This document shows positions 40 to 8,623 of a DNA stretch of 13,117 nt, in pieces. The stretch is taken from NCBI RefSeq assembly GCF_003334815.1, contig NZ_QOWO01000058.1. One strand, written 5' to 3'. The position numbers were made by a program, and so were the translations under genes. How positions within the stretch are numbered: position 1 is the first letter of the stretch; every line of letters begins with the position of its first letter. The notes under the pieces are model-generated. The model made no database searches. It was not told where the DNA came from and worked only from the letters and a program-made list of their open reading frames with translations. The stretch is from Escherichia coli (GTDB lineage: Bacteria > Pseudomonadota > Gammaproteobacteria > Enterobacterales > Enterobacteriaceae).

Positions 40-135
40 AACAGGCTATAATGGCCTGAAAAACGGGACAGGATGTGTAATTGTAATACCGTCACACGCG
101 ACGCTATTACAATTACCATCTGGTCAGGGCTTCGC
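40..135 (+). other. oriT: Candidate origin of transfer (oriT) upstream of nikA, with inverted repeats
   Basis: Perfect 12-bp inverted repeat GTAATTGTAATA (77-88) / TATTACAATTAC (105-116), extendable to about 17 bp with one indel (72-88 vs 105-120). Second short palindrome CAGGC-TATAATG-GCCTG (42-58) containing a TATAAT hexamer (47-52). Position immediately 5' of a nikA/nikB relaxosome operon matches the R64 oriT arrangement. Exact nic site not determinable by eye. Confidence 0.6.
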
Positions 136-160
136 CCCGACACCCCGTAAGGAGCCTGAA

Positions 161-3228: not shown

Positions 3229-3801
3229 ATGGCTTATGTCGATGATTTTAAAGAAGCAATAATCAGGACTCGGCGGTTACAACTTGCGCAACCCGTTGAT
3301 TTATGTGAGATGCATACTCGCATAATGAACGATAAACGAATCCGCCATTTGGGAGGAATTATACGTCCTGTACTGGATCTGAATTCTGGGTATGAACAAC
3401 TGGTTGCGCGATGTATGCCTGTTCATCTTCAAGCCAGACCTTTGGTTGAAGAATGGCTGGGATGTCCTGTTTATTTTACGTTGGGATGGATTGATGATGG
3501 GACCCCAAAAGGTATGTTCAGGTTTGATGAGGACTTTATTACTGATACATTGAAAAATGGTTATACAGGAGATACTGTCAATCTTCATGCATGGCTAACT
3601 TTACCTAGTATGGAAATTATAGATATCACATTATCAACAACAATTTCTATGTTGCAGGGGCATAAGAATCAGTTAGGCGGTGTTATTATCAAGAGAGCTG
3701 ATGATATTAAAGGCTTCTCATATAAGCCAATGCTTATTGGTGATGAATTCCTGTTAAAATCTGGTATATTGCATAAGTTTACATATCTAGAATTGAACTA
3801 G
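3229..3801 (+). CDS. Hypothetical protein, 190 aa, hydrophilic, no recognised domain
   Basis: ATG at 3229 with GGGAG (3218-3222) 6-7 nt upstream; the longer ORF-track start at 3100 overlaps the nikB 3' end and has no RBS. Stop TAG 3799-3801. AT-rich codon usage like the adjacent microcin island. Convergent with mcpB. Confidence 0.6.
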   Translation: MAYVDDFKEAIIRTRRLQLAQPVDLCEMHTRIMNDKRIRHLGGIIRPVLDLNSGYEQLVARCMPVHLQARPLVEEWLGCPVYFTLGWIDDGTPKGMFRFDEDFITDTLKNGYTGDTVNLHAWLTLPSMEIIDITLSTTISMLQGHKNQLGGVIIKRADDIKGFSYKPMLIGDEFLLKSGILHKFTYLELN

Positions 3802-3850
3802 TGTTTTTTAAATAAACTGGTTTTTTGACGTTCTTATCTCTGTTCAGAAA

Positions 3851-6040
3851 TCACCTCCTGTTGGGATGATTATTTATATTATGAGTTCTGACAGGTCGAT
3901 ATTTTATTTCCGAAAAGTGACCATCTCTCAGATACAGAACTCTGTCTGCGGATGCTATTGTTTCTGGTCGATGAGCTATTAACAGAACAGGAATTCCGAG
4001 TTGGCGTAATGTCTGGCTTATTTCTATTTCACTTTCCACATCAAGATGACTGGTTGCTTCGTCCAGTAATAATAGACTAGGTTTTTTATACAGTGCTCTT
4101 GCCAGTAGAATACGTTGCTTCTGACCACCGGAAAGTCCCCCCCCGGTTTCTCCAAGCAATGTTTGATAGCCCATTGGCATTGCCATAATATCACTGTCTA
4201 TAAGTGCCAGACTTGCGCATTTACGCATGTGTTCATGATCTCTAATTTCGCTAAAAAACATTATATTATCAGCTATAGAACCTTTGAAAAGATAGTCATC
4301 TTGCAATACAGTGCCAATTCGTTGACGAACCTGAAAATAATCAGAATGTGTATGTGGTATGCCAAATGCATTAATTCTTCCTTCACTGGGTGTATGAATC
4401 CCAAGAATAAGCTTTACCAATGTTGATTTGCCACATCCTGATTTACCTGTTATTGCTAATATTTCTCCAGGAAAGAGCATTAGTGACGCGTTATCCAATA
4501 TGGGTTTATCTGCGCCCTTATGGCTAAATGTTATTTTTTCGATAAGTAATGGTGGATGGGTATTATCATATTTATGTTCTCTGTACTGGCTTGCAGATAT
4601 TGTTTCATTATGGTTTGCCCAATGGTGCTGATTCTGGTGACCTTCCTGTGGTGTTAGCACAATATCGGCAAGTCTCTCGTTATAAACATCAAGCATGCGC
4701 CAGGAAAAAAAGTTATCAGTCAGATTGCTTATACTGGATGAAAAACGCATCTGATAGGATAAGTAAGCAACCAACATACCCACGGTAAATGTCCCATCCA
4801 GCACTTCTACTGCACCCTGCCACAAAATAATGGCTGAAACTACACTTTCCGTCAGTGTATGCGTCAGCTCATAGCTCATTTGTAAACGATTCTGGCGTAG
4901 CTGTGTGTTTCTGCGGGTAACGTTGAGGTTCAGCCAGGCCGCTTCTCTGTGAATAGTTACACCGTTGATTCTCAGACTCTGAATGCCGTTAAGGGTTTCG
5001 AGAAAATGCCCCGACTCCTTAGTTCCTGCATCCCAGACATCTTCAACAGATTGCCGTAAAGCCGGATACCACAATGCTCTCAGTGCGCCATATATAATAG
5101 CTGCAATTACTGCGATTAATGTCATTCCTGGACTATACAACAGCATCATGCAAAGAGCAGTCACAATAAGTAGCATATCCAGAATGCCTTCAAGAACCTG
5201 CGTTGTCAGCGCCTGCTGGATTATATCTACTGCTTCAAAACGGGCATTAATACTTCCTTTACTTCGGGCATCGAACCATGCAAGAGGGAGTCTTACAAGA
5301 TGATGGAAAACTCTGGCAGTCCATTGCATGTTAAAATTGACTGATAAACTGATCGTTGCCCATTGTCGTGCCAGGGAGAGTAATAATTGTATGAGTGATA
5401 ACAACAGTAGTGCCACTATAATGACATACAACAGACTTCTGTCTGCTGCAACCAGAACTTCATCAATTACCAGTTGATTAAGAAGTGGACCACCTAAAGC
5501 CAGAATCTCAAGGGCCAGAGCAAAAATAATAATTTTTGTCATTGATGCTAAAAGCCCCGGGGTTTTCCCTGTCAGTTGGCGCAGGTGGATTTTTTTTCTC
5601 TCGTTCCGGGGGGTGAAATCACTGGCTGGAGTTAATTCCAGTGCCACTCCTGTAAAATGCTTACCTGCGTCCAACAGACTTATTGTAATTTTTCCTCTGT
5701 CCGGATCATGGATGTATAACCGGTTTCCCCGAACTTTATGGAGAACGACGAAATGGTTCATATCCCAGTGCAGAATAGATGGAAGATTAAGACACCTCAG
5801 ATCTTCGGGTTCCAGACGAACTGCACGTGATGATAAATGGATGGACGCTGCACATTCGATCAACCTTTGTAGCGTCATTCCCTGAATACCTATATTGAAA
5901 CGTTCCCGTAATGTCGATAAATCTGTTTTCAGTCCATGCCAGCAGGCAATCATAGCCAGACACGCCAGACCGCATTCAGCTGATTCGGTTTGACGGATAA
6001 CGGGTAGTTGTTTCCTTACTTTCCAGTTTATTGATTCCAT
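3851..6040 (-). CDS. mcpB: Microcin ABC exporter with N-terminal C39 double-glycine peptidase domain (CvaB-like)
   Basis: C39 peptidase motifs (QTESAECGLACLAM catalytic Cys, HFVVLH His), a transmembrane domain, Walker A GKSGCGKST, ABC signature LSGGQKQR, Walker B LLLLDEATS, H-loop IAHR. Start chosen at the ATG 6040-6038, which overlaps the upstream gene stop as TAATG and has a GGA-containing SD (AAAGGAAA). The ORF-track start at 6088 adds 16 aa and lacks an SD. N-terminus aligns with CvaB (PVIxQTExAECGLACLAM). Confidence 0.92.
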   Translation of the reverse strand: MESINWKVRKQLPVIRQTESAECGLACLAMIACWHGLKTDLSTLRERFNIGIQGMTLQRLIECAASIHLSSRAVRLEPEDLRCLNLPSILHWDMNHFVVLHKVRGNRLYIHDPDRGKITISLLDAGKHFTGVALELTPASDFTPRNERKKIHLRQLTGKTPGLLASMTKIIIFALALEILALGGPLLNQLVIDEVLVAADRSLLYVIIVALLLLSLIQLLLSLARQWATISLSVNFNMQWTARVFHHLVRLPLAWFDARSKGSINARFEAVDIIQQALTTQVLEGILDMLLIVTALCMMLLYSPGMTLIAVIAAIIYGALRALWYPALRQSVEDVWDAGTKESGHFLETLNGIQSLRINGVTIHREAAWLNLNVTRRNTQLRQNRLQMSYELTHTLTESVVSAIILWQGAVEVLDGTFTVGMLVAYLSYQMRFSSSISNLTDNFFSWRMLDVYNERLADIVLTPQEGHQNQHHWANHNETISASQYREHKYDNTHPPLLIEKITFSHKGADKPILDNASLMLFPGEILAITGKSGCGKSTLVKLILGIHTPSEGRINAFGIPHTHSDYFQVRQRIGTVLQDDYLFKGSIADNIMFFSEIRDHEHMRKCASLALIDSDIMAMPMGYQTLLGETGGGLSGGQKQRILLARALYKKPSLLLLDEATSHLDVESEIEISQTLRQLGIPVLLIAHRPETIASADRVLYLRDGHFSEIKYRPVRTHNINNHPNRR

Positions 6041-7293
6041 TACAGATTTCCTTTCATGCTCCATAGTGGCTCTGTCAGCCATTCCCATAAATGACGAGTA
6101 TCAAGGTTGACGTCTCCTTCCAGAGTCATGCCTGGTCTTAGCGGTTCTTTTTTTCCGTATGCAAATATAAATGTATTTTCAGGCTCAACAATAACGCGAT
6201 AATGCCCTTCGTTTTCTTTCCATGTGACGGGTGAAACTGGTAATAAGTCGGAAGGAGCCAGAGTCGTATGACTGATTTCACGAATTGTGCCGTACTGGAT
6301 ACCAAATTTCTGATAAGGGAAGGCCGAAAACTTCAGAGATACTCGTTGACCTGGTCGGATAAAACCGGCTTTCTGGCTGGTAGCATAAAGCTCAATTTGT
6401 AAATGAGCATTATCGGGAATGAGAGTCATGACCGGTTCTGATGCTTTCACAGACTGCCCCTGTTTGATCAGTACAGCAGCAATAGTCCCGGATACTGGAG
6501 CCCTCAGTGTAAATTTTTCTTGTCCGGCCAGTTCATCCTGTTGTTGTTTTAGCACCTGCAATTGTCTGTCGAGTTCTGCTTTACGGCTTTTCCCCTGAAC
6601 AATAAGATGATTTAGTTCATCTTTGGCTGTGTCCATTGCAGTATGCAACTGGAGAAGCCCCTGACGCTGATCTTCAACGTTTTGTTGAGCGGCAGAAACA
6701 TCAATTTGTTTCTGTTGGAATTCGATATCTGACACATAATGCGTACCAGCCAATTTTTTATAGCGTTCCATGACGGATATAGCCAGTTCTGCCTGACGTT
6801 CAGCAAGCTGAAGTCTTTGTTCTGCACTTCTTATTTGTGGCTCAAGTGATACCATCCTTTGCCGTATGGCTTCCTGTTGTTGACTATTATCTCGCGACTC
6901 AAAGGATTGCTGGGAGGCCAGCATGATAGACTGGGTTTTCAGGGAAATACTCATCGTTGCTAATGTGCCAGTTCCGTTACCGTTATAATGTTCTCCACTT
7001 ATATGATAGAGTTGTGTCCCTGCAGTTACGTGTTCTCCTTCGGATACAGTCAGTTGTGTTACATATCCTGCATATTGAGGAATTATTTTTACCAGTCCTG
7101 ATGAGGGCATGACGATACCTGTAAGATGCGCTTTCCTTGTATAGCTACCGTAATAGATGAATACAGTCAGACTTAACATAATGAATAATGTAACTGTTGC
7201 ACATACGGATAGGCTAAATGATGTTGGTAAAATAATGTCACCATATTCAGTGTCATTATGATGTTCTATTGCTTCACTTCTGAATATATTCAT
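6040..7293 (-). CDS. mcpD: HlyD/CvaA-family membrane fusion protein for microcin export
   Basis: N-terminus MNIFRSEAIEHH aligns with CvaA MFRQDALENRK, followed by a single TM helix and a long coiled-coil Q/E-rich periplasmic region. Start taken as ATG 7293-7291; the ORF-track start at 7329 is a TTG with no SD. Stop TAA 6042-6040 overlaps the mcpB start. Confidence 0.88.
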   Translation of the reverse strand: MNIFRSEAIEHHNDTEYGDIILPTSFSLSVCATVTLFIMLSLTVFIYYGSYTRKAHLTGIVMPSSGLVKIIPQYAGYVTQLTVSEGEHVTAGTQLYHISGEHYNGNGTGTLATMSISLKTQSIMLASQQSFESRDNSQQQEAIRQRMVSLEPQIRSAEQRLQLAERQAELAISVMERYKKLAGTHYVSDIEFQQKQIDVSAAQQNVEDQRQGLLQLHTAMDTAKDELNHLIVQGKSRKAELDRQLQVLKQQQDELAGQEKFTLRAPVSGTIAAVLIKQGQSVKASEPVMTLIPDNAHLQIELYATSQKAGFIRPGQRVSLKFSAFPYQKFGIQYGTIREISHTTLAPSDLLPVSPVTWKENEGHYRVIVEPENTFIFAYGKKEPLRPGMTLEGDVNLDTRHLWEWLTEPLWSMKGNL

Positions 7294-7395
7294 TCTTTTT
7301 AATACAATAACTAACCTTTCTGTCAACAAGAGGGGTTGGTTGAATAATATTGATATTTGATATACATCTTACCTGTGTGATGTTAAAGTTTTATA

Positions 7396-8031
7396 CTATA
7401 ATATATTTAACAATATAACAAAGCCGTTTATCCCCGCATGTAACAGCATTGGATAGAAAATCCCCTTACTGCAAATTCTTATATTCAACAATAACATTGA
7501 CATAATAAACAGAATAATTTGATCAGCTACATTATAATACTGCGGATGCATCAGGCAGAAAAATAAAGATGTACACACGCAGGGGGTGAATAATTCTTTT
7601 TTATAAGTCGCACATAGAAGGCCGAATAAACATGTTCGGTAAACAATTTCTTCATAATACGGAACTATCAGGACCAGTATAAATATTTCAATCCAATTAA
7701 GTGAAGTTGATTCACTATTGTTTAAATTGTCTCTATAAGCAAAAATAAGCAGTTGCATGAGAGCAATTACAGCAAATGATATTACTAATAGCTTTAATGT
7801 TTTCGCATTTGTCTTTATGGTGATTTTACAACCTGGTATTCTTCTTAAGTAAAAAATATAAAATGAAGTTGATATTAAAATTTCAGTAATAAAGACAAAG
7901 GAAAATGCCAGGTCCAAACCAATATATTGTATGGTGAATGCTGGTGTGAATATCACAACTGTTGATATAACAACAAGTAGAAGAAACGCTATCGCATTAT
8001 CTTTGCTGTATTTATATATGTTATCATTCAT
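7396..8031 (-). CDS. mcpA: CPBP-family (CAAX protease / Abi-like) intramembrane metalloprotease homologue, 211 aa
   Basis: Polytopic membrane protein with the three CPBP motifs: EExxxR (EEIVYR), FxxxH (FFCLMH) and HxxxN (HAGIN). Very AT-rich. ATG at 8031-8029 lies 4 nt after the mcpI stop (TAG 8038-8036). Confidence 0.85.
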   Translation of the reverse strand: MNDNIYKYSKDNAIAFLLLVVISTVVIFTPAFTIQYIGLDLAFSFVFITEILISTSFYIFYLRRIPGCKITIKTNAKTLKLLVISFAVIALMQLLIFAYRDNLNNSESTSLNWIEIFILVLIVPYYEEIVYRTCLFGLLCATYKKELFTPCVCTSLFFCLMHPQYYNVADQIILFIMSMLLLNIRICSKGIFYPMLLHAGINGFVILLNIL

Positions 8032-8035
8032 AATG

Positions 8036-8236
8036 CTATTTCGCGGAGATTGTTCTTATTTTTTCTATGATATAGTCCATGAATCTTGCTGTGGAAAAAA
8101 GAGTGATCAGCATGACTACAATCTTTGAAAACTCGGAAGGGAGTGAAAACCAGTATAAATCAATAACAGAGGAGCCACTCAATAGCGCAAATCCCAGTAA
8201 CAAACCACATATAAAGGAAAGTAATTTAATAAACAT
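8036..8236 (-). CDS. mcpI: Small two-helix membrane protein, probable microcin immunity protein (66 aa)
   Basis: Small hydrophobic ORF immediately downstream of the precursor gene, the usual position of class II microcin immunity genes. Start chosen at ATG 8236-8234 (MFIKLL...) because GGAGG lies 8-9 nt upstream; the ORF-track start at 8251 would add 5 aa (MEGAT). Confidence 0.7.
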   Translation of the reverse strand: MFIKLLSFICGLLLGFALLSGSSVIDLYWFSLPSEFSKIVVMLITLFSTARFMDYIIEKIRTISAK

Positions 8237-8260
8237 AGTAGCGCCCTCCATTATATCTAT

Positions 8261-8623
8261 TTATCGGTTACATGTTCCGCCAACATTATTACCTGAACAA
8301 CTACTGGAACTTCCTCTGTTACCACATCCATTTCCACTACCATGATCTGAGAGACATTGACCAACAACGGCTCCACCAATGGTACCTCTTGCCATTCCTA
8401 TGGGACCTCCTTTGATCGCACCACCAATCATTCCACTAAATACAGCGTTAGCGCATTTTACAGTGCTTGGATCACTATAAATATGAGTTGGTGCGTTTCG
8501 ACCCAGTGAGTTACGAGCCCCACTGGAACGCTCATTACGGGGGCCACCTTCAAAGTTGCTGTTTGCGTTTCCTCCGCTGACAAGCGTTATCTCATCTAAA
8601 GTTAATTCTCTTATACCTGCCAT
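8261..8623 (-). CDS. mcpM: Class II microcin precursor with double-glycine leader (120 aa), matches microcin PDI McpM from memory
   Basis: N-terminal leader MAGIRELTLDEITLVSGG has the ExLxxxExxxVSGG double-glycine pattern ending at G17-G18, with a second GA site at G35/A36. Gly-rich mature region with GxxxG-like repeats (GGAIKGGPIGMARGTIGGAVVG) and Cys at 57, 90, 100, 109, 118. SD GGGGAAA upstream of ATG 8623-8621. First gene of an operon ending in a C39-ABC exporter. Confidence 0.88.
   Translation of the reverse strand: MAGIRELTLDEITLVSGGNANSNFEGGPRNERSSGARNSLGRNAPTHIYSDPSTVKCANAVFSGMIGGAIKGGPIGMARGTIGGAVVGQCLSDHGSGNGCGNRGSSSSCSGNNVGGTCNR

Follow-up and report, generated by a model that had tools for sequence, protein, structure and literature searches.

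The 13,117-nt stretch of Escherichia coli DNA analyzed here (hereafter, the window) is, judged by its sequence, part of an IncI-complex plasmid (R64-type, MOBP/MPF-I), and we consider it about 93% probable that the segment from approximately position 58 to position 149 is the conjugative transfer origin (oriT) of that plasmid and works as described for R64. This reading is based on homology, architecture, conservation, covariation, and strand logic. The segment has all of the sequence-level features that define the R64-type (MOBP12) oriT family, of which it is, by those features, a member, and it represents an already known, ordinary origin of this type, with no new biology. Binding by NikA, the exact bond that would be cleaved, and the putative role in termination are assigned by analogy with the R64 and pCTX-M3 literature; likewise, site- and strand-specific nicking by NikA plus NikB and mobilization by an IncI1 helper are predicted from the near-identity to R64 and from homologous sites that are mobilized (pEC156). 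Coordinates of all features are collected in Table 1.

Plasmid context and extent of the origin

Over its first 500 bases, the window matches several IncI-gamma/K1 and IncI1 plasmids of E. coli and E. fergusonii at 100% identity and hundreds of IncI1 plasmids at 99.6%, and nikA is annotated under the match in all of them. In one identical record (NZ_CP024481.1), the genes run in the order leading-region genes, a divergent open reading frame (ORF) of 112 amino acids, nikA, and nikB, and in the IncI1 reference plasmid R64 (NC_005014.1) they run psiA, ardA, divergent ORF, nikA, nikB, and trbC; as in these records, the origin in the window is situated immediately upstream of nikA-nikB, between that operon and the leading region. 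Aligning positions 1 to 200 with R64 yields four differences (positions 57, 78, 115, and 175), the last being a silent change within nikA, and only two of them (78 and 115) fall in the block from 58 to 149. The alignment puts the R64 oriT at this place and not elsewhere. An R64-type oriT upstream of nikA-nikB, which had been proposed from the letters of the DNA, is thereby borne out not only by the alignment but also by gene order, by the identity of NikA and NikB to their R64 counterparts, and by the literature, in which the R64 oriT lies immediately upstream of nikA and contains sets of 17-bp and 8-bp repeats (PMC3817090).

A sensitive search with the first 165 bases returned 3,789 plasmid records, 1,711 of which are typed as mobilizable by MOB-suite. 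In large conjugative plasmids the match begins at position 1, and in relaxase-less Col-type plasmids of 1.5 to 6 kb it extends only from about position 58/66 to position 145/149, at 80 to 94% identity. Because the relaxase-less plasmids share only that block, we set the limits of the minimal oriT at 58 and 149, a length that agrees with the ~93 to 94 bp given for the R64 oriT, whose core is described as the “nick region and repeat A” (PMC4743918). Judging from these comparisons, the ~90-bp block is the unit that has been copied and kept for mobilization. The T78/A115 allele carried by the window is widespread, with 547 records at least 99% identical.

Among the matches are very small Col-type plasmids (loci L011 to L019; e.g., CP057356.1, 1,551 bp, and NC_021927.1, 2,096 bp) that have only the ~90-bp oriT block and neither a relaxase nor nikA. 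Small Col-like plasmids (pEC156, pKPN2, and the 1.5-kb Col(MG828)-type plasmids) have in common with the window the ~90-bp block from 58 to 149, including the invariant nick region, the covarying 17-bp stem, and the 8-bp repeat block, but they lack nikAB as well as the TATAAT and palindrome upstream of the block, and their stems differ from that of the window in up to 6 of the 10 outer pairs. One of these plasmids, pEC156, is mobilized by R64drd11 through its R64-type oriT (PMC4743918).

Several neighboring features are recorded here in their own right. The divergent 112-amino-acid ORF beside oriT (L001:2592-2927, minus strand, 74 bp to the left of window position 1) is annotated as [quoted passage not shown] in some records and as hypothetical in others, and its molybdopterin name looks like an annotation carry-over from the mobilization “MobC.” In the intergenic DNA before this ORF, and across the left end of the window, there is a perfect 8-bp inverted repeat, GGCAGGGC-TGC-GCCCTGCC (L001:2986-3004; window positions of about −15 to 4), whose counterpart at locus L005 is a compensatory variant (GGCAGGAC…GTCCTGCC) and whose R64 counterpart lacks 1 nt of the left arm.

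On the other side of the relaxase gene, an insert of ~5.6 kb (window 3229 to 8623) separates nikB from trbC, its immediate neighbor in R64. The insert encodes a 190-amino-acid hypothetical protein, a C39-peptidase ABC exporter, an HlyD-type adaptor, and a CPBP protease, along with a 71-amino-acid membrane ORF and a Gly/Ser-rich ORF of 120 amino acids, the product of which starts MAGIRELTLDEITLVSGG and has a double-glycine leader (…LVSGG; G17-G18) and a G35-A36 site. Microcin PDI is specified by five genes, mcpM-mcpI-mcpA-mcpD-mcpB (PMC5311971); the layout and cleavage sites of the insert match the published ones, although the 120-amino-acid product has five cysteines and the microcin PDI paper describes four (PMC5311971).

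Table 1. Features in and around the R64-type origin (positions are those of the window; ↓ marks the predicted nick)
Feature	Position	Strand	Basis or remark
CAGGC-N7-GCCTG palindrome	42..58		Probably fortuitous
TATAAT, candidate nikAB −10 box	47..52	+	Conserved in diverged large plasmids
Minimal R64-type oriT	58..149	− (T strand = minus)	Defined by homology with oriT-only plasmids
Nick region, 5'-ACATCCTG↓TCCCG-3'	64..76	−	MOBP consensus, invariance, published IncI1-type nic
Nic-proximal arm of 17-bp repeat, GTAATTGTAATACCGTC; counterpart of R64 “repeat A,” putative NikA-binding arm	77..93		Repeat search
Loop ACACGC, 6 nt	94..99		Repeat search
Nic-distal arm of 17-bp repeat, GACGCTATTACAATTAC; would form T-strand hairpin with proximal arm (termination, per R64)	100..116		Repeat search
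Conserved distal block, CCATCTGGTCAGGGCTTCGCCCCGACACCCCG	117..147		Nearly invariant among 17 sequences
8-bp imperfect inverted repeat, 7/8	123-130 / 134-141		Identical to R64; inside minimal oriT
Shine-Dalgarno sequence of nikA, AAGGAG, 6 nt ahead of GTG start	149..154	+	Read from sequence
nikA, ribbon-helix-helix relaxosome accessory protein, 110 amino acids	161..493	+	100% identity to R64 NikA; annotated NikA in identical records
nikB, MOBP relaxase, 899 amino acids	504..3203	+	96% identity to R64 NikB; annotation
Insert ORFs	3229-3801; 3851-6088; 6040-7329; 7396-8031; 8036-8251; 8261-8623	+; −; −; −; −; −

The 17-bp inverted repeat and the distal block

The two arms of the large repeat are complementary at 16 of 17 positions, 12 of which form a perfect run (77-88 / 105-116), and their single internal mismatch, C89·C104, occurs at the same place in R64. 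No other inverted repeat in the 13 kb reaches at least 16/17 with a loop of 3 to 20 nt. Repeats of the class of at least 14/17 arise 0.225 times per simulated 13 kb, and the arm sequence, allowing up to three mismatches, is expected 0.01 times and was found only at the two arms; the repeat is far above chance. The sequence-only reading had drawn the arms at 72-88 and 105-120, and from that description the 12-bp core and the presence of an imperfect 17-bp repeat stand but the coordinates do not, the core having been extended outward into GATGT / CATC (with one bulge) and not inward as in R64.

Comparative evidence comes from an alignment of window positions 58 to 150 with R64 and 15 relatives (17 sequences in total). 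Across this alignment, 92.9% of the cells in the outer 10 bp are paired, and compensatory changes are present in 7 of the 10 pairs; the covariation score of the tested structure, taken as a whole, was reached in 0 of 500 shuffles, and all slid registers collapse. Stem variants that are still complementary include GGGAATGTC…GACATTCCC, GTAATCGTA…TACGATTAC, and GTGTTTGTA…TACAAACAC. The window and R64 themselves differ within the repeat, with T78/A115 in the former and C78/G115 in the latter (L004:6965 and 7002), and because these bases pair together, as the second base pair of the 17-bp stem, we regard the two substitutions as a compensatory double change. This exchange keeps the stem intact although the NikA of the window is identical to that of R64. 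An outward continuation of the helix, in which GATG (72-75) would pair with CATC (117-120), was rejected, as it displays no compensatory change and its pair 73-119 is broken in 12 of the 17 sequences.

Sequence conservation is distributed differently between the arms. Within the left arm, G83, T84, A88, C89, C90, and G91 are invariant in 17/17 sequences, whereas their right-arm partners are variable and often mispaired, and every one of the sequences has an internal mismatch at stem position 10 to 13. Such an asymmetry would be the natural outcome if sequence recognition by a protein were limited to one arm, with the other arm needed only to complement its outer part. Binding of NikA to only one arm is announced in the title of Furuya and Komano (1995), and the asymmetry is consistent with NikA on the nic-proximal arm because ACCG and GT are invariant only in 77-93. 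Initiation in R64 requires the nic-proximal arm, and termination requires the entire inverted repeat (PMC5863519). The covariation pattern agrees with these genetics: it amounts to clean comparative confirmation that selection acts on pairing in the outer part of the repeat and on sequence solely in the nic-proximal arm. Taken together with the R64 alignment, the published work on R64 supports, by analogy, the earlier suggestion of a NikA-binding and termination element of the R64 kind.

Beyond the nic-distal arm, the conserved distal block contains a second, 8-bp repeat, which had no place in the sequence-only reading. Its A126·C138 mismatch is present in 17/17 sequences, and no covariation was seen in it among the 17, which are near-invariant here and thus uninformative on pairing either way. 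The R64 oriT likewise has a 17-bp repeat with one mismatch and an 8-bp repeat with a conserved mismatch; relative to R64, the window shows C78→T and G115→A in the stem and, outside oriT, has T in place of C at position 57.

The upstream palindrome and a candidate nikAB promoter

To the left of the minimal origin, the palindrome is present exactly as had been claimed, with CAGGC at 42-46, TATAATG, GCCTG at 54-58, and TATAAT at 47-52. It could be interpreted as an operator over the nikAB −10 box, serving autoregulation by NikA or another protein, or as a hairpin right at the 5' terminus of the T strand, but we judge both versions very unlikely. The palindrome does enclose a perfect, conserved TATAAT, is only 10 nt 3' of the nic assigned below on the T strand, forms in the predicted fold of the single-stranded DNA, and is flagged as terminator-like on the minus strand by a scan. 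Nonetheless, stems of 5 bp occur at the chance rate (101 perfect stems with loops of 3 to 8 nt in the window versus 84 ± 10.5 in simulated sequence), and 5 bp of stem around a 7-nt loop is too little for a stable hairpin or terminator. The palindrome is perfect in the window owing to the T at position 57; R64, with C, reads CAGGC…GCCCG. The left arm, CAGGC, is conserved across eight diverged large plasmids except for the most distant, which has GAGGG; the right arm takes the forms GCCTG, GCCCG (R64), CCGAT (L005), GTCTG (L008), GTCTA (L009), and TGACT, and no compensating change for this variation was detected among the eight. Both the palindrome and the TATAAT lie outside the block from 58 to 149 and are absent from the oriT-only plasmids, and no similarity was found between the palindrome and the 17-bp repeat, the putative NikA site. 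The minus-strand terminator-like call (58-42) corresponds to this same palindrome and was set aside as too weak, imperfect in R64, and with nothing upstream needing termination. From these comparisons, the palindrome is probably fortuitous and not functional; its location outside the oriT block, its imperfection in R64, the lack of compensation, and its dissimilarity to the repeat all speak against the notion, put forward in the sequence-only reading, of a shared protein-binding and autoregulatory site. Any autoregulation of nikAB would more likely act through NikA at 77-93 than through the palindrome.

The TATAAT itself is plausible as a −10 box because it is conserved within diverging flanks, being kept in 7 of the 8 diverged large plasmids and replaced by TATTAT in the eighth. 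The best accompanying −35 element is weak (ATGATG at 25-30, 3/6 matches, with a 16-bp spacer), and a promoter scan called no canonical promoter within positions 1 to 160, TATAAT at 47-52 included; we found no mapped transcription start for nikAB in the literature. The nikAB promoter postulated at this site retains its perfect, conserved −10 hexamer, with the weak −35 and the negative scan weighing on the other side. The TATAAT is a plausible −10 box for nikAB, in a promoter whose transcript would cross oriT. If so, transcription would start at ~59-60 and traverse oriT in full. It is conceivable, but in our estimation unlikely, that a nikAB transcript driven from this box runs through nic and the NikA-occupied repeat, such that the relaxosome at repeat A would throttle expression and transcription would help to open the duplex. 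As far as the literature that we found goes, such coupling of transcription and relaxosome is undescribed for IncI1.

Predicted nick region, cleaved strand, and transfer direction

Read on the minus strand across 83→64, the window contains 5'-…CAATTAC ACATCCTG T CCCG…-3', within which CATCCTGT (75→68) agrees with the MOBP nick consensus, (C/T)ATCCTG(C/T), at every position. An inverted repeat closely precedes that consensus along the nicked strand (PMC3772185), and in the window the repeat (116→77) is directly 5' of CATCCTGT. Positions 66-76 (GGACAGGATGT) and C64 are invariant in 17/17 sequences, and position 65 is G in 13/17; R64 and ColIb-P9, in which oriT is also directly upstream of nikA, have the nick region ACATCCTGT. 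Matches to YATCCTGY number 5 in the window against 1.85 expected, which alone is not significant, and since the motif is this frequent, it carries weight for us only when taken together with where it lies, how invariant it is, and what has been published. The nic of pCTX-M3, ACATCTTG↓T, is called “similar to that of the IncI1 plasmids” (PMC8125031); it was predicted from the R64 oriT, and mutating it abolished self-transfer of pCTX-M3 (PMC7440800). The nick region of the window fits this published IncI1-type nic, ACATC(C/T)TG↓T. When the literal strings of the nick region were looked up in full-text literature, all of the hits were unrelated primer or guide sequences.

We infer that nic lies between the bases complementary to window positions 69 and 68, which would put it 8 nt (76→69) from the left arm. 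The choice of the exact bond rests on secondary citations, homology, and the position reported for the R64 cut. In 1991, Furuya and Komano reportedly placed that cut at a G↓T junction located 8 bp away from the repeat, and the 8-nt spacing in the window agrees with this position.

Transfer direction provides independent support for this choice of strand. In the R64 record, ardA and psiA are left of oriT on the plus strand. Genes of the leading region enter first, with the transferred strand as their template, and the relaxase is in the lagging region (PMC11541004, PMC12672017). Given a leading region on the left with ardA and psiA on the plus strand, the T strand would run 5'→3' leftwards and thus be the minus strand. 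The order along the minus strand is 8-bp repeat, 17-bp repeat, 8 nt, and nic, so that both repeats would arrive last, as a termination signal should. As a single strand, T-strand positions 150→40 have a strong predicted fold of −33.1 kcal/mol (z = −7.9) with the two hairpins. The predicted fold also has a closing helix between CGGGG (147→143) and CCCG (67→64), which would place the nick beside the base of both hairpins; we take this helix to be a by-product, probably unselected, because the substitutions of relatives at 65 and 145-146 are non-compensatory.

The sequence-only reading had expected nic on the other flank, a few bp beyond the right arm on its 3' side (~121-135). The corresponding geometry, in which NikB would nick the plus strand there and NikA would bind the right arm, is one to which we assign very little probability. 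The right flank, CCATCTGGTCAGGGC, and the block from 117 to 147 are highly conserved, equal to the left side, and CATCTGGT, on the plus strand at 117-124 and hence 0 to 8 nt from the right arm, is a relative of the MOBP motif with two mismatches. This octamer is a degenerate mirror of CATCCTGT, the segment 64-124 being a loose palindrome, but it probably does not serve as a second nick site, since most relatives read CACCTGGT, which has three mismatches. In addition, a plus-strand nick would send nikAB and tra first and ardA, psiB, and ssb last, contradicting the IncI1 leading-region data. The perfect consensus, ACATCCTG↓T, occurs across the repeat from this flank and on the opposite strand, and it agrees with the published IncI1-type nic. 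Moreover, it is the left arm rather than the right one that holds the invariant bases to be looked for where a protein makes contact. A right-hand nick of the form CATCTGG↓T was rejected on the grounds of transfer direction and of the exact consensus on the other side. The earlier placement gives way to the MOBP motif on the minus strand at 75→68, beyond the left arm, with which transfer direction agrees; an ATCCTG nick motif on the complementary strand (68-75) was absent from that first description.

Under the R64-type reading, initiation would begin with NikA binding the nic-proximal arm (77-93) and placing NikB, the relaxase, at the neighboring nick region. The relaxase would then cut the minus strand within 5'-ACATCCTG↓T-3' (69/68) and stay attached to the 5' end, and transfer would proceed leftwards, with the leading region (ardA, psiAB, and ssb) first and nikAB and the tra genes last. 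After one round, the 8-bp (123-141) and 17-bp (77-116) repeats would arrive, single-stranded, just 5' of nic, where the 17-bp hairpin would let NikB recognize and rejoin the ends. That the 17-bp repeat is instead mainly transcriptional (an attenuator in the nikAB leader, a terminator, or the operator of a symmetric repressor) is scarcely credible. In favor of such a role, the repeat is situated downstream of the candidate −10 box (47-52) and upstream of nikA (161), its arms contain a −35-like TTGTAA (81-86) and a −10-like TATTAC (105-110), and NikA bound to it could block transcription. Against it, there is no T-run after the stem on the plus strand, the repeat and its flanks are kept on tiny plasmids without a nikA to regulate, the arm sequences, including the promoter-like hexamers, which are not conserved, change freely with pairing kept, the restriction of invariant bases to one arm argues against a symmetric repressor, and the literature assigns the repeat to the initiation and termination of transfer (PMC5863519). 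As a secondary effect, NikA may nevertheless act as a roadblock to transcription.

Similar arrangements are known from other plasmids. RP4/RK2 (IncP; TraJ, TraI) also has, on the T strand, an inverted repeat followed by 8 nt and (C/T)ATCCTG↓(C/T), and it has, as proposed for the window, a ribbon-helix-helix accessory protein on the nic-proximal arm and a relaxase operon that is transferred last (PMC3772185 and textbook accounts). Termination helped by a hairpin would be a further trait that the window has in common with this paradigm. There is no sequence similarity between the two beyond the nick hexamer: unlike the window, RP4 has a 16- to 19-bp repeat of other sequence, an extra TraK-binding region, and a G↓C cut (G↓T in the window), and its repeat lies between nic and the relaxase operon, whereas the window has a second conserved block, with the 8-bp repeat, before nikA. 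The IncM plasmid pCTX-M3, for which low-efficiency cross-mobilization with the IncI1 plasmid ColIb-P9 is reported (PMC8125031, PMC7440800), differs from the window by one base of the nick octamer (T for C), by diverged repeats and NikA/NikB proteins, and by an oriT within the tra operon, where the window has a separate nikAB operon.

The value of the assignment lies only in annotation, in that it fixes where oriT is, which strand is nicked, and which way transfer proceeds in this plasmid, with the leading region to the left of window position 1, and it helps both to predict which genes enter a recipient first and to recognize hitchhiker plasmids that carry only an oriT.
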